The notes beneath the pieces are model-generated. The model saw nothing but the letters and a program-made list of their open reading frames with translations, was not told the origin of the DNA and made no database searches. The position numbers and the translations under genes are program-made. Shown here in pieces: positions 4,200-16,197 of a DNA stretch of 28,566 bases. Every line of letters starts with the position of its first letter. Within the stretch, counting starts at the first letter, position 1. Source of the stretch: a virus; the IMG/VR virus record IMGVR_UViG_3300009431_000983; one strand, 5' to 3'.

Positions 4200-4759
4200 T
4201 CCTCCTCCAAAGCGTCCTCAGAAAAAAGACTAGGACAAGATCTGTATTCGCTAAGAAGAATACCCAACGCTTCCAGGGGATCTTCTACCAGAGGTCCTCC
4301 GTCGTATTCCTGATGCAGAGGATTCAAAATGCGAGTAGTCCCATAAGTATAGGCCAGCCACATGTCGGGAAAATAGCACGGCCCACTTACCCACACCTGC
4401 TTACCTAAGGCCCTGGCGGTAGCCACCTCCGTAAGAGTCCCGTACACGTCCTGGCTGGAAATCCAGGCGAAAGTCACATCTGCCATCCTCACCGCTTCCC
4501 GAGATAGACGCCCCAGAATTACCCTCGCCCTGAAACGGTCCTGCCTGGCGATCCCGTCACAAATCTCCAAATATGGTCCGGTGTAGTCTAATCCGTCACC
4601 TAAACCGTCAGTGATTATTCGCCACGCTCTAGGTACTGTGTCCAACCTGTGATGTGAAGTCGCATATCCCTCAGGGAACTCACTAATCACCGGATCTCGC
4701 CAGCGCCCCGTAGGACCACTCACCTTACCCGCCAGGTAGAACGCTATCCTCTCGCTCAC
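4196..4759 (-). CDS. nucleoside 2-deoxyribosyltransferase / DNPH1(Rcl)-like N-glycosidase superfamily protein
   Basis: 187 aa. N-terminal RIAFYLAGKV (IYLAG-type motif) and C-terminal DVTFAWISSQDVYGTLTEVATARALGKQVWV (D..G T.E.G.A.A.GKPV-like motif) match the NDT/DNPH1 flavodoxin-like fold family as I remember it. Start overlaps the end of the PurA-family gene (4756..4759). Confidence 0.6.
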   Translation of the reverse strand: MSERIAFYLAGKVSGPTGRWRDPVISEFPEGYATSHHRLDTVPRAWRIITDGLGDGLDYTGPYLEICDGIARQDRFRARVILGRLSREAVRMADVTFAWISSQDVYGTLTEVATARALGKQVWVSGPCYFPDMWLAYTYGTTRILNPLHQEYDGGPLVEDPLEALGILLSEYRSCPSLFSEDALEED

Positions 4760-5889
4760 TTTTCTTTGAACCCCAAAAAGTCCCAGACATGGTTCTGCTG
4801 AGGCCCAGTACCCACCAGAATCACCGGAAGTCTCGTTTCCTCCCGCACCTGTCCAATGAACTCCCGAACCTTGGGAGGTAGCTCAGAAAACTCGTCTCCA
4901 CATGTGCCGAAACAGCTATAGTCAAGATAGTTAGCGAAGTTCAGTACTAGCTTGGTCACACCGTTCAGCCGACACGCTCTCTTGATCTGCTCCATGGAGA
5001 AGGTTGCCACCCGCCGCACCCTCTTAGTGACAGTCGTCAACTCCATCAAGTCGTAGTCCTCCGGGTATCCTGCTTCCTCCTTAATCTGCTCCCAGGTGAT
5101 CTCCTCTTGGTCCGGATACCAGTCCCCGGAATAGCCAACTTGCCTGCCGCCCTCAACCACGTTACCCACCCGTATCGGATAGGGCCTGAATACACCATAC
5201 ACGTCACCCAGGTCTCTGGGTGAAATGCCCGTATCCGTCAATTCCCTGGAGACGGTACACTCACGAGAAGTGCAAAACGGATAGGACTGACCGTGTAGCA
5301 TCCCCAAAGAAAAACCCTGGCTTCCTTCAGCCAGAAACATCCCCTGCTCCACAGCTTCCTGGATTACGTTGAACCACTCCCCCTCAGGCACAACCATAGA
5401 CGACAATTCCGATACATCCCTTGCCAGAACTACTCCCTCTCCCCGCATCATCCTCTCTACCTGAACGGCCCCCGACCCCTGCATGGTGGACGCCAAATGC
5501 TTAGTACTTCCCTCATTACCCACCTTTCCACTTTCCACCTCGGCATGCTTTTCGGTTACAACCATCGCCCTCGGATGAATGTGCACCGAAGAACTGTCAA
5601 GAGAACACTCATTTATCTCCTGTAGAAGTCTCTCAACGAAAAATCCCGCCCCAGGACCCACGTAAACTTCGACATCTTGTCCCTGATGCCTGAGAAAAGC
5701 ACTTACCGGAATCAACTTGGACACGAATTTACGGCCGTCCGCCAGTACTATAGTGTGTCCGGCATTTGGCAGATTATTTGTCCCCGCCCCCGTTACGTTG
5801 AACCTTTCCGCCAGATATCCAGCGATCAGACCCTTCCCACAACTACCGAACTGCAAATCCACCACAACGTTGAAACAACCACGAAGCAT
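4756..5889 (-). CDS. adenylosuccinate synthetase family enzyme (PurA/PurZ-like), divergent P-loop
   Basis: 377 aa. NVVVDLQFGSCGKGLIAGYL aligns with the PurA P-loop VVVGtQWGDEGKGKivD. NNLPNAGHTIV aligns with GGhNAGHTvv (conserved His). QGFSLGMLHGQSYPFCTS aligns with the QGtlLDidhGTYPfVTSS region of PurA. The SD GGAAGGGAGAA sits 8 nt upstream of the ATG. Confidence 0.75.
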   Translation of the reverse strand: MLRGCFNVVVDLQFGSCGKGLIAGYLAERFNVTGAGTNNLPNAGHTIVLADGRKFVSKLIPVSAFLRHQGQDVEVYVGPGAGFFVERLLQEINECSLDSSSVHIHPRAMVVTEKHAEVESGKVGNEGSTKHLASTMQGSGAVQVERMMRGEGVVLARDVSELSSMVVPEGEWFNVIQEAVEQGMFLAEGSQGFSLGMLHGQSYPFCTSRECTVSRELTDTGISPRDLGDVYGVFRPYPIRVGNVVEGGRQVGYSGDWYPDQEEITWEQIKEEAGYPEDYDLMELTTVTKRVRRVATFSMEQIKRACRLNGVTKLVLNFANYLDYSCFGTCGDEFSELPPKVREFIGQVREETRLPVILVGTGPQQNHVWDFLGFKEK

Positions 5890-5968: not shown

Positions 5969-8764
5969 TCAACCGCTGCACCCGTCACCCGCTCCGCAGT
6001 TCAAACACTTGTGACAGGTCCCATTACGCACCATCATGAATCCGCACCCTGGGCAAAGTGGCGCGTCCTCCGTCATCCTGAAAGCGTGGTCCTTGGTTTC
6101 AGCCTGTCTGATGGACGTTTCCTGTTCTTCTCTCTCTTGATTGTGCACCTCTTCCTCGTGGCCGTCGCCACTGACCTCAGGTATGAAGCTCTCCGAAGAG
6201 TCCAAGTCCTCAAGAAACTTGATACCAAGCCAACGGAACACATAGTCTACCACCGACTTGGCCAACCGTATATCCGGATTCTTAGTGTGGCCCGCCGGCT
6301 CGAAACGCATGTAACTCAGCTTGTCCACCAGGGCCTCAAGAGGAACACCATACTGTAGAGCGATAGAAGAAACAATGGCAATCGTGTCCATCAGACCAGA
6401 AATCGCACTCCCCTGCTTCGCCATCTTCAGGAAGATTTCCCCCGGCCTCCCATCATCGTACTTGCCGACCGTAACGAACCCTTCGAAACCTCCAATGTCG
6501 AAACGATGCGTGAGGGACTGCCTCTCCCCCGGAAGGTGCTCCCGCTCTGGACGAACCGCCGCCTTTTCTTCCTTACTCTTTGAAGTGCCGGAATTCAGAG
6601 GCTGCGCCTTCTTGCAGTTGTCCCGGTAGATAGAAATGGACTTGAGTCCCATCTTCCAAGCCTGAACGTACAAATCAAGGATCTCAGGTCCGGTCGTTTC
6701 CTCCGGAACGTTTACCGTCTTGGAAATTGCCCCTGAGAGAAATGGCTGAACCCCAGCCATCATTCTGAGGTGCCCGCTGTGATGGATCGACCGAGTACCG
6801 CTTAAAGGAACAAGAGCGCAGTCGAACACGGACAAGTCATCTTCTCTAAGACCTGGCGCTCCTTCGATGGTTTCTTTGGACTCCAGGTGGTCAAGAATGC
6901 CTGAAACCTCCCCGTCCCTGTAGCCCAGCACCACCAGTCCGTCCCGAACAGACTGGTTGACAATGCTCATTTCCCCTCCGCCTGAAAGCTTCTTCGTCTT
7001 TACTAGGGCGAGATCCGGCTCAATCCCTGTGGTATCGCAGTCCATCATGAAAGCGATAGTTCCTGTAGGCGCTAAGCACGTTACCTGGGCATTCCTGAAT
7101 CCGAAATGTGCACCATCCTTCAAAACATCTGCCCAAACATCCGAAGCCTTGTTACCTAGCTCCGTCTCAACTCCCCTGAAACCGTGACTTGCTGCCTGCG
7201 CGGCATGCTCGTGCATCACCGACATGAAAGACTGTTCGTTGTTGCGATATCCAGGGAAGACCCCCTTTCTCGAAGCCAACGAAGAAGAGGTCCTGTACGC
7301 TTCGCCCGTCATGACCGAAGTCAGAGCCGCAGCATAGTTGCGGCCTAAGTCACTGTCATAGGCGACACCCTTAGACATCAAAAACGCACCCAGATTGGCG
7401 TAGCCCAGACCAAGCGGCCTAAAATCGTTACTGTTCCTGGAGATCTTCGTTGTCGGATAGCTCGCCTTGCTCACAAGAATGTCCATGGCCGTGATTATCA
7501 CCCTGACCGTGTGACAGAACAGGGAAACGTCAAAAGACCCATCCTCACAAGTGAAACTCTTCAGGTTGAGAGATGCCAGATTACAGGCGCTATCGTCCAG
7601 GAACATGTACTCACTGCACGGATTGGAGGCGTTGACTCTGCCTGAATCCCTGCAGGTGTGCCAGTGATTGACGGTCGTATCGAACTGTAAGCCGGGATCG
7701 CCACAAGCGTAAGTTGACCTGGCGATCGCCTCAAGGATCTTCTTGGCGGGAATTGTGTCTACTGGCCTGCCCGTCACCACCTCGGTAGTTTGCCAGTCCT
7801 CACCCTTCTCAACTGCTGTCATGAAGGCATCCGGAACTCTCACTGAAAAGTTCGAATTCTGGAAAAAGACTGAACTATACGCCTCTCCGTTCAAAGAGTT
7901 GTCATATCCCGCCTCTACCAAAACTTGGGCCTTACGCTCCTCTCTGGTCTTGGCCTCAATGAAGTCCAGGATGTCCGGATGATCCACATTCAAAATCTGC
8001 ATTTTCGCGGCTCTGCGCGTCTTCCCTCCAGACTTGATGACACTAGCGAAAGCATCGTACCCCCGCATGAAAGCCAAAGGTCCCGAAGCAATTCCTCCAG
8101 CGCTCAAGTGCTCCTTGGAAGACCGGATAACGCTCAAGTTGGTGCCTGTACCAGAACCATACTTGAAAAGCATGCCCTCTGTCTTGGATAGCCCCAATAT
8201 GGAGTCCATGCGGTCTTCAACCGAGTTGATGAAACAAGCAGAGCACTGAGGACGATTCTCAATCCCTACGTTGAACCATACCGGACTGTTAAAGCAACCC
8301 ACCTGAAACAACAAGATGCTGGTCAATTCGTCCCTGAAGGTTTCAGCCTGCTCCTCTGTCTCAAAATAGTCCTGCTCCTCTCCCCACCTAGTGATCGTAG
8401 TCACCACCCTCCCAATCAACTGCTTAACACTGTATTCCCTACCAGGACTGCCAACTGCCCCCCGAAAGTACTTAGAGGCGACAACGTTGGTGGCGAGTTG
8501 AGACCAGGTCTTTGGTACTTCAACCCCCTCTTGTTCAAAAACGACTGTCCCGTCATCCCCGTTGATTACGGCCTTTCTGGTCTCCCACTCCACACGCTCG
8601 TATGGGTCCTTTCCTTTTACCGACCACTGCCTTTCGAGAGTAAGTACGCCCTTACCGTTTCCAGAAGACGGCCTAACGTCTCCTGCGGACTGCGTGGACG
8701 TTACTCCCTCTGTAATGCTTGCCCGTCCTCGCTCTACAGTAGCTACTGCTTGTCCCTCTGCCAT
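5969..8764 (-). CDS. nrdJ: ribonucleotide reductase, class II-like (adenosylcobalamin-type NrdJ) large protein with C-terminal zinc ribbon
   Basis: About 930 aa. ASKYFRG, NSPVWFNVG, CSACFI, GSGTGTNLS, NPCSEYMFLDDSACNLASLNL (RNR active-site Cys/Asn/Cys/Glu region) and C-terminal CPGCGF..CHKCLNCG. Start trimmed to the ATG at 8764 (MAEGQ), preceded by GGGAGGAGG. The longer frame starts with TTG at 8791. Confidence 0.85.
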   Translation of the reverse strand: MAEGQAVATVERGRASITEGVTSTQSAGDVRPSSGNGKGVLTLERQWSVKGKDPYERVEWETRKAVINGDDGTVVFEQEGVEVPKTWSQLATNVVASKYFRGAVGSPGREYSVKQLIGRVVTTITRWGEEQDYFETEEQAETFRDELTSILLFQVGCFNSPVWFNVGIENRPQCSACFINSVEDRMDSILGLSKTEGMLFKYGSGTGTNLSVIRSSKEHLSAGGIASGPLAFMRGYDAFASVIKSGGKTRRAAKMQILNVDHPDILDFIEAKTREERKAQVLVEAGYDNSLNGEAYSSVFFQNSNFSVRVPDAFMTAVEKGEDWQTTEVVTGRPVDTIPAKKILEAIARSTYACGDPGLQFDTTVNHWHTCRDSGRVNASNPCSEYMFLDDSACNLASLNLKSFTCEDGSFDVSLFCHTVRVIITAMDILVSKASYPTTKISRNSNDFRPLGLGYANLGAFLMSKGVAYDSDLGRNYAAALTSVMTGEAYRTSSSLASRKGVFPGYRNNEQSFMSVMHEHAAQAASHGFRGVETELGNKASDVWADVLKDGAHFGFRNAQVTCLAPTGTIAFMMDCDTTGIEPDLALVKTKKLSGGGEMSIVNQSVRDGLVVLGYRDGEVSGILDHLESKETIEGAPGLREDDLSVFDCALVPLSGTRSIHHSGHLRMMAGVQPFLSGAISKTVNVPEETTGPEILDLYVQAWKMGLKSISIYRDNCKKAQPLNSGTSKSKEEKAAVRPEREHLPGERQSLTHRFDIGGFEGFVTVGKYDDGRPGEIFLKMAKQGSAISGLMDTIAIVSSIALQYGVPLEALVDKLSYMRFEPAGHTKNPDIRLAKSVVDYVFRWLGIKFLEDLDSSESFIPEVSGDGHEEEVHNQEREEQETSIRQAETKDHAFRMTEDAPLCPGCGFMMVRNGTCHKCLNCGAGDGCSG

Positions 8765-8830
8765 GCTAACACTCCTCCTCCCTGTACCCAATGTTTACCT
8801 TCTCAACCTGAACTATCTGACGCTTCGCTG

Positions 8831-9454
8831 CTAGCCGAATAGAGCAGCGTCCACCACCTGCGAAGATACTGGACGATCGGACTTTCCCTGGGAAAGCCAC
8901 TCTTTGAACTGACCCCAGGTCAAAGCTGTAACGCTTCCTAGTCCTTTCCACCCAGGCTCGTAGTTACTTAAATATCCTTCTCTTGCCGCCTTCTCATTGG
9001 TGAACCCAACCATCACCTTGTGCTCATCGAACTCGCCATCCCAATTCTGGTCAACAACAAAAACGACTTCTGATTCCGGATTGTCTCCTATAAACACATC
9101 GATGTGGTCTCCATCAGCATCACTCTCTGTCAAACGGATATACCCGTAATGATGCTTCATCTTGATGGACCACTCCACGCCGTCCGAACTCTTTCCGCTG
9201 CGGGTTTGCCCCTTCCCTGTCTCAATCGTAATAGGGAGGCCCCGAACCGTAACTTTGCCTTTACGGTAATTCCCCGTCTCTTTCTGCTTTTCGGTGGGAT
9301 TTGGCTCGCACTTCTTGGCCGCCTCGTCAATCAGCTTCTTCAGGTCACCGTTCACCTGGGCAACCACTATCGACAGAAGCTGACTTGCCGACTTTAATCT
9401 TCCGTCTGCACCTATCACCACTGAAATCCCTATACCCGTTGTACCGTGCTTCAC
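8831..9454 (-). CDS. divergent family-I inorganic pyrophosphatase-like protein
   Basis: KHHYGYIRLTESDADGDHIDVFIGD resembles the PPase core NYGYI..T.S.DGDP.DVLV. Weaker matches elsewhere in the protein. Start uncertain: GTG at 9454 has no SD, while GTG GTG at about 9416 is preceded by AGGGA. Confidence 0.45.
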   Translation of the reverse strand: MKHGTTGIGISVVIGADGRLKSASQLLSIVVAQVNGDLKKLIDEAAKKCEPNPTEKQKETGNYRKGKVTVRGLPITIETGKGQTRSGKSSDGVEWSIKMKHHYGYIRLTESDADGDHIDVFIGDNPESEVVFVVDQNWDGEFDEHKVMVGFTNEKAAREGYLSNYEPGWKGLGSVTALTWGQFKEWLSQGKSDRPVSSQVVDAALFG

Positions 9455-9622: not shown

Positions 9623-11154
9623 CTAACTTCTGGCCCAAAGTCTGGAGCGGAAATCGTAACTATATCCGCGGCCCTTCAGGTGCTTCTTCACTGCGTTGAT
9701 TTCCGACTTCGTGTAAGCCTCAAGCTCCGTTCCCTCAGGCAATCTCGCCGTAGTTCCCTCCTCATCGAGACTGCCGCTGGAGAACGTGCTCAAAAGTTCA
9801 ACGAGTCTCGCCTCAGTAACCTTGCCGTTACTCCCGGAAGGAGACTTGCTCTTCTTGGACGTCGTCTTGCGGCTCGCCTCCTCCTCAGGGTCAAACACTT
9901 TGCAACGAGTGATGACCGTCTGCTTGATTCCACGATATTCGTCATGCTTCTTGATGGTGCCCCGAACCAGCCGGTAGTCACCATATTCCCAGTCCTCATC
10001 ATAGTAGCTGGAGGAGAACCAGACAAATTGGTTGCCGTCTTCGTCTTCCAGCTTGTGGATGTGAGTGACTCCATAGTCTCCTTCGCTTCCCCGACGCTTC
10101 CGATATGTCTGCTGTTCAAAAACTTAAGGTCCCGCTCCTTGCGCTCGACTTCCCGCTCCATGTGTCTCTGATAGGAGGGGTAAATCGAAACCGCAAGGCC
10201 AATACCCCGACTGTCCACGTGCCCGATATTGGCCACGACCTTGATATTGTAAAGGTAATCGTTGTCTTCACCGACCGCAGCCGCCCACCATATCGCGGCC
10301 TCTGCCTGCTCCTTAACCTTGTCGGTCAGGGCTTCCCGGACGCTCTCCGCCCACTCAATGTCTCGTCGCTCCTTGAACCCACCACGAGGGGGTTCCATGT
10401 ACTTCATGACGCTGCATGCGGTGGACGTAGCACCGAAACCCTGCTCCCGGGCCTTGGTTGACGAAAGCCAGCCCTCGACCTTGATGACGGCTCCGGTCAC
10501 TTCCAGAAGATGCTTAAGGTCATAAAGCCGAGGACCTCCACCACCGAAACCTCCCTCAGTGTCGGAAGCCTCAGCCATGAGGTCCTTAAGGTCATAAAGC
10601 ATCGTTGCCCAAAGAGCCGCAGCATGAGGATCTTCGTTGGCGGCCCCCAAGAAATCCTGGATGCACTTCCGGCCAACCTGGACATAACGCCCGTCCTCGT
10701 GCTGCAGGACGAAAGTATCCTTGCGATTCCGGATAGTGCCGCAGTGGTCGCAAATCCGACCACGATTCCGCTGGTCCTCAGGACATTCCTCCCCAGGAAC
10801 ACAGCGAACAAGAGTAGCCTCTTCCAACTGCTGGATGGAAGCGATGAACTTCCAGCCCTGCAAGTGAGGCTTCTCGCCGGAAACCCTAATCTCGTGAAAT
10901 TCAATGATGGTAAGCCGCCGAGGGTCGAAGTTATCGAACATCTCCTCCGGATTGCAACCCTCTTCCAGGGGAATCTGAGGAGTGTTGGACTTTTCCTGGT
11001 AGTATCGCTGAACGGTCGTCCCGAGGTCATCCATCTGGACCTCCGGACGCCCGAGCTTCCTTGCGCGCTTGTTAATCTTCTCGACCGCTTCCTGAAGCGT
11101 CTGAAGATTAAAACCAGGAATGGCGTAGGTTTCTTCGAATCTCTCGTCCGTCAT
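9623..11154 (-). CDS. hypothetical CxxC zinc-finger protein, apparently requiring a -1 frameshift (or carrying a homopolymer indel) near 10118-10122
   Basis: Frame X (11154 down to about 10120) reads MTDERFEETYAIPGF...CDHCGTIRNRKDTFVLQHEDGRYVQVGRKC...ERDLKF. Beyond that point it degenerates into an Arg-rich low-complexity tail until 9790. Frame Y (-1) is open from 10123 to 9623 with no start codon and reads protein-like sequence (GSEGDYGVTHIHKLEDEDGNQFVWFSSSYYDEDWEYGDYRLVRGTIKKHDEYRGIK...GYSYDFRSRLWARS). One extra T in the T5 run would fuse X to Y, giving about 515 aa. Real start is the second ATG (11154), with GGGAGA 7 nt upstream. Confidence 0.5.
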
Positions 11155-11185
11155 GTCTCTGTCTCCCATAGGTAGGTTTTCCCCA

Positions 11186-11222
11186 CCTTTATATACACCG
11201 CTCAGGCGTTTGGTTTCAATCG
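11186..11222 (-). promoter_or_regulatory. promoter module P1 (minus strand cgaTTGAAAccaaacgcctgagcgGTGTATATAAAggtgGGGAAAACCTacct...GGGAGAcagagacATGAC)
   Basis: sigma70-like -35 TTGAAA, 17-18 nt spacer, extended -10 TGTATATAAA. A conserved leader follows. Drives the 11154 gene. Confidence 0.6.
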
Positions 11223-11232
11223 GGAGACAGTC

Positions 11233-11814: not shown

Positions 11815-12246
11815 CTACCTGTTCTCCAGGTATGCCTTCCTGACTTTAAACCAATACTTCCTAGTCTCCTTTTTGTTATACCCCCTAGGTCCGCCATTGT
11901 GAACTCTGGCAAGGACCTCCATGTTCCAGGAAGCAAGCGCCTTAGGCACATACCGCTTCCAGTAGTTATACATCACTCTCTCCGCGTAGGTGATGTTGCT
12001 GACGTCCTGGTATCTCCCCTTTGTCCTGGAATCCTTCCAATAGGCCTGACTTATCTGATACGGACCCAAGGACCTGCCGTTGTCTCCAAGCACGTTTGCG
12101 GGATTCCGAAAGGACCCGCTCTCGACAAAGCGGATGGCTTTGTAAAACTGCCTGACGTTTACCGACTTCCCCTTGAGGGGCACCTGCCCCCAGGCCGACA
12201 CGCACAAACTGGCCAGAAGAATGGTGAAAACATAGCGAATCTTCAT
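11815..12246 (-). CDS. secreted SLT/lysozyme-like (lytic transglycosylase-like) protein
   Basis: 143 aa. N-terminal Sec signal peptide MKIRYVFTILLASLCVSAWGQ. FVESGSFRNPANVLGDNGRSLGPYQISQAYW resembles the SLT-domain catalytic E-S ... NP.A.S..GA.GLMQ region. Confidence 0.5.
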   Translation of the reverse strand: MKIRYVFTILLASLCVSAWGQVPLKGKSVNVRQFYKAIRFVESGSFRNPANVLGDNGRSLGPYQISQAYWKDSRTKGRYQDVSNITYAERVMYNYWKRYVPKALASWNMEVLARVHNGGPRGYNKKETRKYWFKVRKAYLENR

Positions 12247-13762: not shown

Positions 13763-14593
13763 CTACATGTTCCAACAACCGTGAAGACACCCCTTATCAA
13801 TGTGGTCTGCGGCCCCGGACCGAATCAGGTCCCGAACCTCCTCGATCGAAAGCTCCTTACGAAACCGGTGCTGAATCTTCTGCTCCACTTCCACATGCTG
13901 GTCCAAAAGTTCCTCGTTGTGCACACCAGCGATGAGCAGGGCATCCTTGGGAGCGAAAATGCAGAAGCAGCACGACAACCGAGGCATTCCCACGTCATAC
14001 GCCCAGTGGTGATTCGTCTCGATGGAGTGAATCCGATCCCAAACCTGCTTCTCCGTCCAGTCGTGGACCGGAAGCCAGTCATCAACGTGCCTGGTGGAAG
14101 AACTCGCCCGCTTGTTGTGGGTGAAGGGCTTCCTTTTCGCACGACTCGGAGACTCCTCCGCTCGCAACCCCATGCAGTTGAGAATCCGGCAAGGACCCCC
14201 GCCGTTCTCCTTCTGCAACCGCACGTAAATCTTGCGAATCTGATCGCGCTTGTGGTCCGAAGTGCAAAACCTGGCGCAGGACGAGGGCCACATCTGCCTC
14301 TTCTCCACGTGCTCCAGGATATCTCCCAGGACCTCCCCCTTCTGATTCACCGTGCCCTTACGGCTCACGATTTCGTATCGAAACCCATAATGGGCGCAGT
14401 GCTCTTTGAACAGGTCCACCGTCCCTGGCCAGTCCATCCGGCCAAGGTCGGCGTGAACCATGATGATCCGGTCTTCGATCCCCAGTTCCTTACACAGGTG
14501 GTAGACCTTATCAGTCGTTACCTGGGAGTCCTTACCGGCAGAACTGCTGATACAGATGAAATCGTAGCTCGCTAAATCCGGTGTTTCGACCAT
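13763..14593 (-). CDS. PAPS reductase / DndC-like PP-loop ATP pyrophosphatase family protein
   Basis: 276 aa. FICISSSAGKDSQV (PP-loop SGGxDS). VHADLGRMDWPGTVDLFKEHCAHYGF (like CysH DTG..FPET). C-terminal RLSCCFCIF Cys cluster. A promoter module with SD AGGGGACAGAGA is immediately upstream. Confidence 0.7.
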   Translation of the reverse strand: MVETPDLASYDFICISSSAGKDSQVTTDKVYHLCKELGIEDRIIMVHADLGRMDWPGTVDLFKEHCAHYGFRYEIVSRKGTVNQKGEVLGDILEHVEKRQMWPSSCARFCTSDHKRDQIRKIYVRLQKENGGGPCRILNCMGLRAEESPSRAKRKPFTHNKRASSSTRHVDDWLPVHDWTEKQVWDRIHSIETNHHWAYDVGMPRLSCCFCIFAPKDALLIAGVHNEELLDQHVEVEQKIQHRFRKELSIEEVRDLIRSGAADHIDKGCLHGCWNM

Positions 14594-14625
14594 TTTCTCT
14601 GTCCCCTAAATAGAAGGTTTTCCCG

Positions 14626-14662
14626 CTTTTATATACACCGCTCGAAGCCACGAGTTCAATCG
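14626..14662 (-). promoter_or_regulatory. promoter module P2 (TTGAAC - N17 - GTGTATATAAAAGCGGGAAAACCT...AGGGGACAGAGA ATG)
   Basis: Same module as P1, upstream of PAPS-reductase-like gene 13763..14593. Confidence 0.6.
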
Positions 14663-14748
14663 TACATAGTAGTGGCGGTCCAACAAGGACCGCCACCCGG
14701 CGTGGCAGGAGCCAGCCGTTAGGGAAAACCCCCTAAGGGGTCAAGTTT

Positions 14749-16119
14749 TTATGCTGCGGTCATCCAAAGCCTTTCGTGAAACCGGTAGCTGAACCCGTTG
14801 GACTTGAGCCAACTCTTGACTCTCCGAATCAGTCCTGAGTCATACTCCTTCAGGGCCTTGCCTTCGGGGAGGCTAACGGCCAGCGGCTTGCCCTCGGCAT
14901 CCACCTTGACGGCGAAGGTCAAGACCTCCTCACTAGCATTCCCTCCCGAATTGCTCTCCAGCATGGACGTAGTCACGCTCTCGATATCGCCAGAGAGGAC
15001 CGAGTCCCAGTTACCGTCGAAACTCTTCTTGGCCTTGTCCTTGACCAGACCAGGAGCAGCGACCAGCATGTCCTCTATCGTCGGATAAACGTCCTCCTGA
15101 CGCTCAGCCAGGTAGATTCGGTTGCTGCGGGCCACTTCAGTGACCGGCTGTCCGCTCTCGGCGGCCATTTCTGCCAGGCGGGCCTCAATCTCTTCCCGGT
15201 CACCCCGGTGAAGACCCTCGACCTTCCGGTCGGCCCGTTGCTTCTTCCAGTAAATTCTCCGGACTCGGTAGACGGCCCATTCCTCTTCAGCGAGAACCTC
15301 TTCCAGGTTGCCCACGGCGTCCTCATTACCGTCATCCCGGACGCAGGTCTCGACGCTCTTTTTCGGATAAAGAGTCATGCGAGGGTTCAAAGCGGTGGAC
15401 ACCCGCTCCAGGAGCATGGCCTCAGCGGCGGCTTCCGGATGGTCCTGATAGCGGTCGAGAATCTCACCCTTGCCGTTGGAGAAAGGGCAGAAGGAGCAGC
15501 AACTCTTCTTCCAGGCGACTCCCAGAACTTCCTCGATGTACTGCTCGCACTTCTCACGACCCCACCCCCAGTCAACCAGGGGGTAACTTACGTTCCGGTA
15601 GTCCGTCGCGAAAGACTTGTCCCTCTCGACCCGCTTAAGCTCATCTGCGTTGAAGCCGATGATGTGCTTGTATTCCGTGCCAGGAAAGCTGTCGTGAATC
15701 CAGGCGTCCAGCACCACACCCTTGAACTTGATGGAGCACCGACGATTCCCAACCGTAAACTGAGGAACCGTTCCCGCCGAAGTGAGTTCATCACTCAGCG
15801 TGTACTGACCTTCCAGAAGAACCTCCGTTGGCTCATCAGTGTCGGACAGCACCACGTAGACCTCCCCCTCCTTGAGACTGGGGCCTTTGCGGGCCACCTG
15901 GACATAGCGAATGCCATGCTCCCGGAGAAGGGGCAAGATATGCTCTTCGAGCAACTTCTTGGTGTCTGGGAACTCGTTGCCGACTTGCGAGGTGAGAACG
16001 ACCAGGTCTTCAAGCTCGAAATCCCTGGAAGCCGGCTCAAGGATCCAACGCAGGAGGATGGCCGTTGAGTCAACGCCCATCCCGTAAGAAAGGATAATCG
16101 GAGTTTTGCTGTCTGTCAT
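14749..16119 (-). CDS. PAPS reductase / DndC-like PP-loop ATP pyrophosphatase family protein (long form)
   Basis: Start trimmed to the second ATG (16119). The first ATG lies inside the promoter -10 element GTGTATGTATATAAAAG. TPIILSYGMGVDSTAIL (PP-loop). KSCCSFCPF Cys motif. Long acidic C-terminal extension ending ...KSWLKSNGFSYRFHERLWMTAA. Confidence 0.7.
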   Translation of the reverse strand: MTDSKTPIILSYGMGVDSTAILLRWILEPASRDFELEDLVVLTSQVGNEFPDTKKLLEEHILPLLREHGIRYVQVARKGPSLKEGEVYVVLSDTDEPTEVLLEGQYTLSDELTSAGTVPQFTVGNRRCSIKFKGVVLDAWIHDSFPGTEYKHIIGFNADELKRVERDKSFATDYRNVSYPLVDWGWGREKCEQYIEEVLGVAWKKSCCSFCPFSNGKGEILDRYQDHPEAAAEAMLLERVSTALNPRMTLYPKKSVETCVRDDGNEDAVGNLEEVLAEEEWAVYRVRRIYWKKQRADRKVEGLHRGDREEIEARLAEMAAESGQPVTEVARSNRIYLAERQEDVYPTIEDMLVAAPGLVKDKAKKSFDGNWDSVLSGDIESVTTSMLESNSGGNASEEVLTFAVKVDAEGKPLAVSLPEGKALKEYDSGLIRRVKSWLKSNGFSYRFHERLWMTAA

Positions 16120-16148: not shown

Positions 16149-16184
16149 CTTTTATATACACCGCTCAGGGACAGTTTTTCAATC
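16149..16184 (-). promoter_or_regulatory. promoter module P3 (TTGAAA - N17 - GTGTATATAAAAGTAGGGAAAACCTACCTACAGGGGACAGAG ATGAC)
   Basis: Near-identical to P1 across about 50 nt including the leader. Upstream of gene 14749..16119. Confidence 0.6.
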
Positions 16185-16197
16185 GTACAGGCCCCCG

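Follow-up and report, generated by a model that had tools for sequence, protein, structure and literature searches.

Among the proteins of the phosphoadenosine phosphosulfate (PAPS) reductase, or PP-loop, superfamily, those that have been tied to DNA modification and defence are the natural point of comparison for the genes considered here. DndC, for example, holds a [4Fe-4S] centre on three cysteine ligands (PMC10853773), a PAPS-reductase domain fused to Dam allows Vibrio crassostreae phages to escape host Dnd (10.1101/2021.05.05.442762; Piel et al. 2022), and phage PAPS reductases are found within Aca-regulated anti-defence operons (PMC13551039). Here we describe two such genes, P1 and P2, that lie in tandem in a 28,566-nucleotide stretch of viral DNA, IMG/VR record IMGVR_UViG_3300009431_000983 (hereafter the window, 28.6 kb), together with the families to which their products belong, which we call fam1 and fam2. 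P1 is an ordinary member of an already known kind of phage protein; P2 comes from a family that has not been described before and that carries a domain of new fold. Genes of the two families recur near each other far beyond background frequency, a pairing that appears not to have been described previously, and we put at about one in two the probability that they form a facultative pair of DndC/BrxP-like iron–sulfur adenylating enzymes whose target is DNA and whose role is counter-defence.

Both open reading frames (ORFs) lie exactly where the first-pass annotation of this stretch had placed two PAPS-reductase-superfamily genes, and both products match PHROG 424, "phosphoadenosine phosphosulfate reductase" (P1: E 4.2e-29, residues 13-248; P2: E 3.1e-22, residues 3-248). 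P1 is also recognized by Pfam PF01507 PAPS_reduct (E 4.6e-12, 46.7 bits against a cutoff of 22.5) and matches the PAPS domain of BrxP (E 2e-15; 54 bits on the PADLOC BrxP model, in the PAPS domain only). Its family comprises 1842 homologs, mostly of about 265 residues and all PF01507 proteins, the best being 50-57% identical to P1. For P2, scans of Pfam, NCBIfam and PADLOC gave no match, and the 730 fam2 homologs, usually 370-400 residues in length, carry no Pfam domain and are called "hypothetical protein" by their sources. A sequence search of the PDB gave no meaningful match for P1 or for the fam2 profile. The P2 reading frame extends to a GTG at 16161; we place the real start at the ATG at 16119, because an AGGGGA ribosome-binding site precedes it and the homologs begin there.

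The two genes had been taken for duplicated copies; they belong instead to two distinct, ancient families. Compared directly, P1 and P2 share 28% identity over 82 residues only, and a profile–profile comparison of the families (hhalign) gives 96.9% probability and an E of 1.8e-10 over 214 columns, with all of the core motifs aligned: the PP-loop (SSAGKDS in fam1, SYGMGVDS in fam2), a second motif (HADLGRxEWxGT, TAQTGDEFxDT), a Cys-Lys motif (RYCTSDHK, RRCSxKFK), an acidic motif (GMRAEES, GFNADE), a Pro-Trp motif (LPIHxW, YPLxEW) and a cysteine cluster (LSCCFCIFAP, KSCCxFCPFA). Exactly three cysteines are invariant in each family, one Cys and then, about 80-100 residues on, a CxxC. The motifs quoted earlier from the two proteins are all present, namely SSSAGKDS and CCFC in P1, SYGMGVDST and CCSFC in P2, and HADLGRMDWPGT and SQVGNEFPDT.

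What distinguishes fam2 is a degenerate PP-loop and an additional domain. The first Ser and the Lys of the loop are lost, and the Asp position is occupied by D, E or H; the residues that are invariant across the family are G13, G15, C128, K133, E160, R163, C208 and C211, with no conserved Cys beyond C211. The predicted P2 fold matches TtuA, the PAPS and adenosine phosphosulfate (APS) reductases, [4Fe-4S] LarE and NcsA, and the list of matches also names TilS, CysD and Cap9. Inteins interrupt two metagenomic fam2 homologs (P0305 and P0286; one intein with a LAGLIDADG domain, one smaller), both at CCxF|CPF, exactly before C211; as inteins commonly occupy critical sites, their position marks CCxFC as functionally critical. 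Beyond the core, the long acidic C-terminal extension proposed for P2 proved to be two different things: a folded domain conserved throughout the family, whose invariant positions include E238, N245, R288, R298, P346 and E349, and an unconserved tail that, with 11 acidic and 10 basic residues, is not notably acidic. A profile of the domain finds 770 clusters (50% identity) among 1.84 billion representatives, and in full-length matches the domain lies C-terminal to a PP-loop core, the short matches resembling gene fragments.

The evidence that links the two families is their recurrence together. Of about 14 distinct viral contigs with fam2, 7 have a PF01507 gene within 10 kb of it; the same is true of about 24 of 80 bacterial loci and, when loci are grouped by clustering, of 36 of 104. 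The two genes invariably share a strand and in many cases adjoin or overlap, in Acidobacteriota, Actinomycetota, Cyanobacteria and phages alike. All ten of the fam2 partners that were tested are PF01507-only proteins, and the idea of a ParB domain fused to the fam1 partners was dropped on the same count. Of all the window's genes, fam1 alone turns up near fam2 with any consistency; for a DNA methylase and for the PHROG 2319 protein there is a single occurrence each. The enrichment of fam1 near fam2 is very large, orders of magnitude over background frequency, because P1-like genes are rare: they are present in 17 of 50,697 phage records and at 337 places among 2.9 million IMG/VR contigs. The order of the genes is not fixed: fam1-fam1-fam2 is seen in some elements, and a tandem fam2-fam2 followed by Mom in an Oscillochloris locus. 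Pseudoalteromonas phage KB12-38 carries two such genes along with a DndB-like gene and methylases, and in about 8 of the 80 best fam1 phage loci, beyond those with true fam2, another divergent PP-loop paralog is nearby.

Fam2 is widespread on mobile elements. It is found in 16 IMG/VR viral contigs, at no fewer than 201 places in species-representative bacterial genomes (Acidobacteriota, Cyanobacteria, Chloroflexota, Actinomycetota and Heliobacteria) and on 212 PLSDB plasmids, including those of Streptomyces, Pseudomonas and Rhodococcus, where every copy is annotated as a hypothetical protein; the 50,697 deposited phage genomes hold no full-length fam2, and no record among them has DNA nearly identical to the window. 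Full-length copies reside on two clinically relevant actinobacterial plasmids, Prescottella equi pVAPN94-27 (L185, 7971-9206) and Mycobacteroides abscessus pGD21-1 (L186, 8016-9149), with neighbours that include DUF6884, DUF6573, a cytosine methylase and DUF6349. The genes that recur beside fam2 in bacterial loci are ParB (19), a ThiF-family E1 (13), a DUF3560-N6-methylase (12), DnaN (12), a MobA/VirD2 relaxase (11), a CxxCxxCC protein (9) and Mom (2), and across more than 100 related loci the company also includes DNA methylases and DUF932. These are the accessory and anti-restriction regions of plasmids, integrative and conjugative elements (ICEs) and prophages, and the setting fits a role in nucleic-acid transactions or counter-defence. 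The Mom-family genes (PF25680) lie 1-9 kb from fam2, at 12394-13395 of L021 and 19579-20382 of L023, the two loci being the Oscillochloris contig and a 273-kb metagenomic contig. The viral contig with the closest relative of P2 (L004, 2251-7289; 56% identity) has fam1-fam2 directly after NUDIX and NAMPT/NAPRTase genes, which we take to resemble a phage module of nicotinamide adenine dinucleotide reconstitution in counter-defence.

How, then, does this locus compare with described systems? DndC, SspD and BrxP share with P1 and P2 the PP-loop fold, the RxCTxxxK stretch and three conserved cysteines, and with P1 the SxGKDS loop. They differ in that P1 and P2 have no DUF4007/SspB-like or ferredoxin-like addition and in that the PP-loop of P2 is degenerate. 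Actual membership in DndC/SspD, as had been suggested, finds no support in the models: P1 scores 16.3 bits against DndC in NCBIfam (TIGR03183, cutoff 290) and 15.1 bits in PADLOC, with the RxCTxxxK stretch around Cys110 as the only part that matches, and P2 has no match to the DndC or BrxP models of either collection. The window holds no DndD, DndE, SspC, SspB/DUF4007, BrxC or cysteine desulfurase. A link to QueC and 7-deazaguanine modification, the other route that had been raised, fares no better, as there is no match to the QueC model and no TGT or DpdA in the window. Over the 28.6 kb, partners of the sulfur-donor, ATPase or TGT kind are absent.

Other described systems also bear comparison. 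One is the group of phage PAPS reductases (PHROG 424 and the PF01507 proteins of phages), to which the PAPS-Dam fusion of the Vibrio crassostreae phages belongs. P1 and P2 both match PHROG 424 and are phage-borne, stand-alone proteins of a variable accessory region beside DNA methylases; neither has a ParB or Dam fusion, and P2 is in addition unseen by PF01507 and has an extra domain without known fold. In tRNA thiolation, Ncs6 and Ncs2 (Ctu1 and Ctu2) are paired paralogs with a canonical and a degenerate PP-loop, respectively, and P1 and P2 repeat this arrangement in that a canonical and a degenerate PP-loop are encoded together, possibly as a heteromer; unlike Ncs6/Ncs2, the fam1-fam2 pairing is facultative, and the substrates probably differ. 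DndB-DndC and IbrB-IbrA, which join a ParB-like and a PAPS-reductase-like protein, come to mind since fam2 is often directly downstream of a ParB-family gene (the 19 loci above), but the window yielded no ParB gene, and the ParB genes of those loci may be partition or PRTRC-cassette genes.

We hypothesize that P1 and P2 are anciently diverged paralogs from a DndC/BrxP-like iron–sulfur branch of the superfamily, carried as cargo by mobile elements. P1, with its intact SxGKDS loop, would be the ATP-pyrophosphatase or adenylating subunit, and P2 probably binds an adenylated substrate instead of cleaving ATP, because the Ser and Lys of its PP-loop are lost. The three invariant cysteines of either protein may hold a [4Fe-4S]-type centre like those of DndC, APS reductase, TtuA and LarE, and the C-terminal domain of P2 could serve in the recognition of a partner or of the substrate, which is probably DNA. 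Jointly or separately, the two would work at an early stage of infection, either on the DNA of the element that carries them or on a host phosphorothioate-type, modification-dependent defence (Dnd, Ssp or BREX-4), and in either case incoming DNA would be protected. A bolder version, which we regard as unlikely, is that fam1 and fam2 together make up a complete heteromeric enzyme, in which an active PP-loop subunit is joined by a degenerate, DNA-recognizing one of new fold, and that this enzyme lays down an undescribed modification on mobile-element DNA, in the present case on a 2-aminoadenine (PurZ) phage genome. The modification may contain sulfur or proceed via adenylation, and no ATPase of the DndD/SspC/BrxC type would be needed.

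Several observations weigh against a facultative DndC/BrxP-like pair. About two thirds of fam2 loci have no fam1 within 10 kb, and most fam1 phage loci are without fam2, the true form being present in only 3 of the best 80; any partnership is therefore facultative, or the linkage may reflect no more than anti-defence islands that both families occupy. P2 and P1 are transcribed as separate units in the window, with fam2 first; in many other loci fam1 comes first. Known phosphorothioation systems need a nucleoside triphosphatase (DndD, SspC or BrxC) and a DNA-recognition subunit, and the window has neither. A liquid chromatography–mass spectrometry survey found no phosphorothioate in isolates without a minimal dndCD, sspBCD or brxPC, and one phosphorothioate-free isolate has a PAPS-reductase gene beside an ATPase with no dndD (PMC12914056). 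Lastly, the anti-Dnd protein that has been tested is not a close relative, and P2 reaches other Vibrio phage proteins at no more than 28% identity over 170 residues. These Vibrio phage matches were considered as the published anti-Dnd protein itself and set aside, since they lead to a different, 47-kb siphovirus group and a 342-residue protein.

The alternative that survives best, and one that we consider possible though doubtful, is that P1 and P2 are not functionally coupled at all but are independent accessory genes that gather in one variable part of mobile elements, the early or leading region. In favour of this are the promoter and transcription unit that each gene has to itself in the window, the varying order and spacing among loci, the absence of the other family from most loci of either one, and the presence of other anti-defence genes in the same islands. 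Independent gathering does not readily account for the failure of any other window gene to recur as consistently with fam2, nor for the strand that the members of every pair share and their frequent adjacency or overlap across phyla, at an enrichment of orders of magnitude.

Could P2, and possibly P1, instead be a non-catalytic mimic? Such a protein would be a decoy or dominant-negative form of host DndC, SspD or BrxP that makes no modification and that, by binding their partners, would disable phosphorothioate-based discrimination of self from non-self. The eroded PP-loop of P2, the anti-defence-type surroundings of both families and the genetic tie between a phage PAPS domain and escape from Dnd all speak for this idea. 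We nonetheless judge it improbable: the cysteine triad and K133, E160 and R163 are strictly conserved across phyla, the inteins at the CCxFC site speak for a cofactor-bearing active site over a mere binding surface, and many fam2 hosts have no stated phosphorothioate system.

Similarly unlikely, in our estimation, is that the proteins are iron–sulfur thiolases like TtuA and NcsA, or adenylating enzymes, with a tRNA of the host or the phage, a nucleotide or a metabolite as substrate in place of DNA. The three invariant cysteines in both families do recall the three-cysteine [4Fe-4S] thiolases, but the window has no tRNA genes, and the neighbours are DNA-directed (methylases, Mom and ParB). The ThiF neighbours, tried as a link to a TtuC-like sulfur carrier, belong with Prok-E2_D and JAB in a ubiquitin-like cassette of mobile elements; such PRTRC-like cassettes of Prok-E2_D, JAB and E1 are found at 14107-16323 of L043 and 4223-5725 of L034.

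CysH and its relatives, the APS/PAPS reductases, share superfamily and fold with P1 and P2, and the position of the Cys...CxxC resembles the iron–sulfur site of APS reductase. The S-[FY]-G-x-G-x-[DE]-S loop of P2 also resembles the non-ATPase P-loop of the reductases. That one or both proteins are true PAPS or APS reductases, auxiliary metabolic genes that boost cysteine synthesis in the host, is nevertheless very improbable despite the PF01507 match of P1 and the label "PAPS reductase" on its homologs, given that P1 falls far below the family cutoffs (17.6 bits against 165 for TIGR00434 cysH, 21.5 against 235 for TIGR02055 APS reductase and 18.4 against 154 for NF002537), that P2 matches none of these models, that the fam1 profile reaches E. 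coli CysH (PDB 1sur) with an E of 0.1 at best, that a C-terminal catalytic cysteine of the ECGLH type is either lacking or not conserved in the two families (conservation of the fam1 C-terminus is limited to W..M, and the GCLHGC of P1 falls in mostly-gap columns), and that no sulfate-assimilation gene (cysDN, cysC, cysIJ or thioredoxin) is present in the window or among the recurrent neighbours of the 104 loci, where the families sit on plasmids, ICEs and phages beside methylases and ParB rather than in cys operons. The view of the first-pass annotation that these genes do not serve sulfate assimilation therefore holds.

Table 1. Positions in the window of P1, P2, their conserved parts, the repeated promoter-like blocks and neighbouring genes.
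Feature	Position	Strand	Description
P1	13763-14593	minus	276 residues; PF01507 PAPS-reductase-domain protein of phage PAPS-reductase type; fam1
P1 PP-loop SSSAGKDS	14525..14548	minus	residues 16-23; S18, G20, K21, D22 and S23 invariant in the family alignment
P1 Cys110	14264..14266	minus	invariant; in R-Y/F-C-T-S-D-H-K motif
P1 CCFC	13961..13972	minus	residues 208-211; family motif GMPRLSCCFCIFAP; C208 and C211 invariant
P2	14749-16119	minus	456 residues; PAPS-reductase superfamily; fam2
P2 architecture	14749..16119	minus	PP-loop-fold core (residues 1-214), conserved C-terminal domain, unconserved tail
P2 degenerate PP-loop SYGMGVDST	16063..16089	minus	residues 11-19; G13 and G15 invariant; aligns with P1 SAGKDS (hhalign)
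P2 Cys128	15736..15738	minus	invariant in 32 sequences; in RRCSxKFK motif; aligns with P1 Cys110; putative iron–sulfur ligand
P2 CCSFC	15487..15501	minus	residues 207-211; family motif W-x-K-S-C-C-x-F-C-P-F; C208 and C211 invariant
P2 C-terminal domain	14995..15477	minus	residues ~215-375; alpha+beta, fam2-specific, without known fold relative
P2 tail	14752..14994	minus	residues 376-456 (81 residues); lineage-specific; predicted local distance difference test score 36-70; alignment gaps
Promoter-like block and leader of P2	16120..16189	minus	TTGAAA, 18 nt, TATATA, GGGAAAACCT..AGGGGACAGAG-ATG
Promoter-like block and leader of P1	14594..14666	minus	same block as upstream of P2
Third full copy of block and leader	11156-11226	minus	precedes PHROG 2319 gene (9790-11169)
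Core copies within the three full copies	11190-11222, 14630-14662, 16153-16185	minus
Promoter-only core copies	17941-17973, 19371-19403, 24061-24089	minus	upstream of three more minus-strand genes
Two terminator-like hairpins	14690..14741	minus	between P2 stop and P1 promoter; folding energy unexceptional (z -1.3)
Adenylosuccinate-synthetase-like gene	4756-5889	minus	377 residues
Class II ribonucleotide reductase gene	5969-8791
InPase-domain gene	8831-9454	minus	207 residues; PF18823, E 5e-53
Destabilase-like (i-type lysozyme) gene	11815-12246	minus	143 residues; Pfam E 6.7e-07
Small paralogous ORFs	18412-18831, 18831-19325	minus	35% identity over 68 residues, E 1e-13
Vault-like gene	19502-22345	minus	947 residues

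Nearly all genes of the window are on the minus strand, and P1 and P2 are each preceded by a conserved block of about 71 nt, CGATTGAAA-N17/18-GGTGTATATAAAAG, with a leader that ends in GGGGACAGAGA-ATG. The core, cGATTGAAA-N17/18-GGTGTATAT, occurs in six copies, and the leader GGGAAAACCTaCCTa..GGGGACAGAGA is common to three of them only, those upstream of P1, P2 and the PHROG 2319 gene; a 16-mer occurs 3 times where 0.07 occurrences are expected by chance. The promoter-like motif is general to the phage and not particular to P1 and P2. To each gene the first-pass annotation had assigned a strong promoter of its own: each does have its copy of the block, and "strong" is unproven, a sigma-70 consensus scan not having called the motif. 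A structured RNA in the shared leader was also considered and rejected, as only two of the three copies can form the small hairpin and Rfam has no match. P2 looks monocistronic, and the block of P1 probably drives P1, the GHKL-HExxH gene, the destabilase-like lysozyme and a 190-residue ORF, which are about 10 nt apart. The GHKL-HExxH protein had been proposed to share a pathway with the PP-loop proteins, and we considered it as the missing ATPase partner; neither idea stood, for 0 of the 8 viral loci with its homologs carry fam1 or fam2, and fam1 and the GHKL protein meet in one other locus only (L121). The lysozyme of this apparent operon has a hydrophobic, signal-peptide-like N-terminus.

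More widely, the pair sits among DNA methylases, DUF932 and PurZ. Three DNA methyltransferases had been reported nearby; two match DNA-methylase models, and the third is a generic class I S-adenosylmethionine-dependent methyltransferase. The adenylosuccinate-synthetase-like protein has its best solved relatives in 6FM1, 6FKO and 6TNH (E 1e-53), which we take to be PurZ of Vibrio phage PhiVC8, and its next match is 7ODX, "Succinoaminodeoxyadenylate synthetase (PurZ)" (E 3e-37). With PurZ encoded in the window, the phage genome therefore probably has 2-aminoadenine in place of adenine (a Z genome); no DatZ, MazZ or DpoZ was recognized within the window. The InPase domain, elsewhere part of giant polyvalent, DarB-like phage proteins, is here a stand-alone protein whose gene adjoins the class II ribonucleotide reductase. 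The vault-like protein has major-vault-protein Shoulder (E 1.6e-23) and Vault_3 repeat domains, which is unusual for a phage, and PHROG and PADLOC scans gave no match for it. The two small paralogous ORFs have in common a C-terminal Cys/His motif, G-C-[ST]-D-C ... FRGRLC..H.EES.WK, and family scans of the second of them (18831-19325) gave no match.

Phage and plasmid "PAPS reductases" are routinely labelled as auxiliary genes of sulfur metabolism, and the only functional data on them concern escape from phosphorothioate-based defence. Our findings on fam1 and fam2 argue against tallying such genes as sulfate assimilation in viromes. A second PP-loop family, for which there has been no model and which is repeatedly paired with a PF01507 gene, offers a concrete two-gene target for finding out what such enzymes do. 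If the bolder version above, that of a self-sufficient modifying enzyme, were to hold, the pair would represent a new class of DNA modification or counter-defence system borne by mobile elements and spread widely over actinobacterial, cyanobacterial and acidobacterial plasmids.

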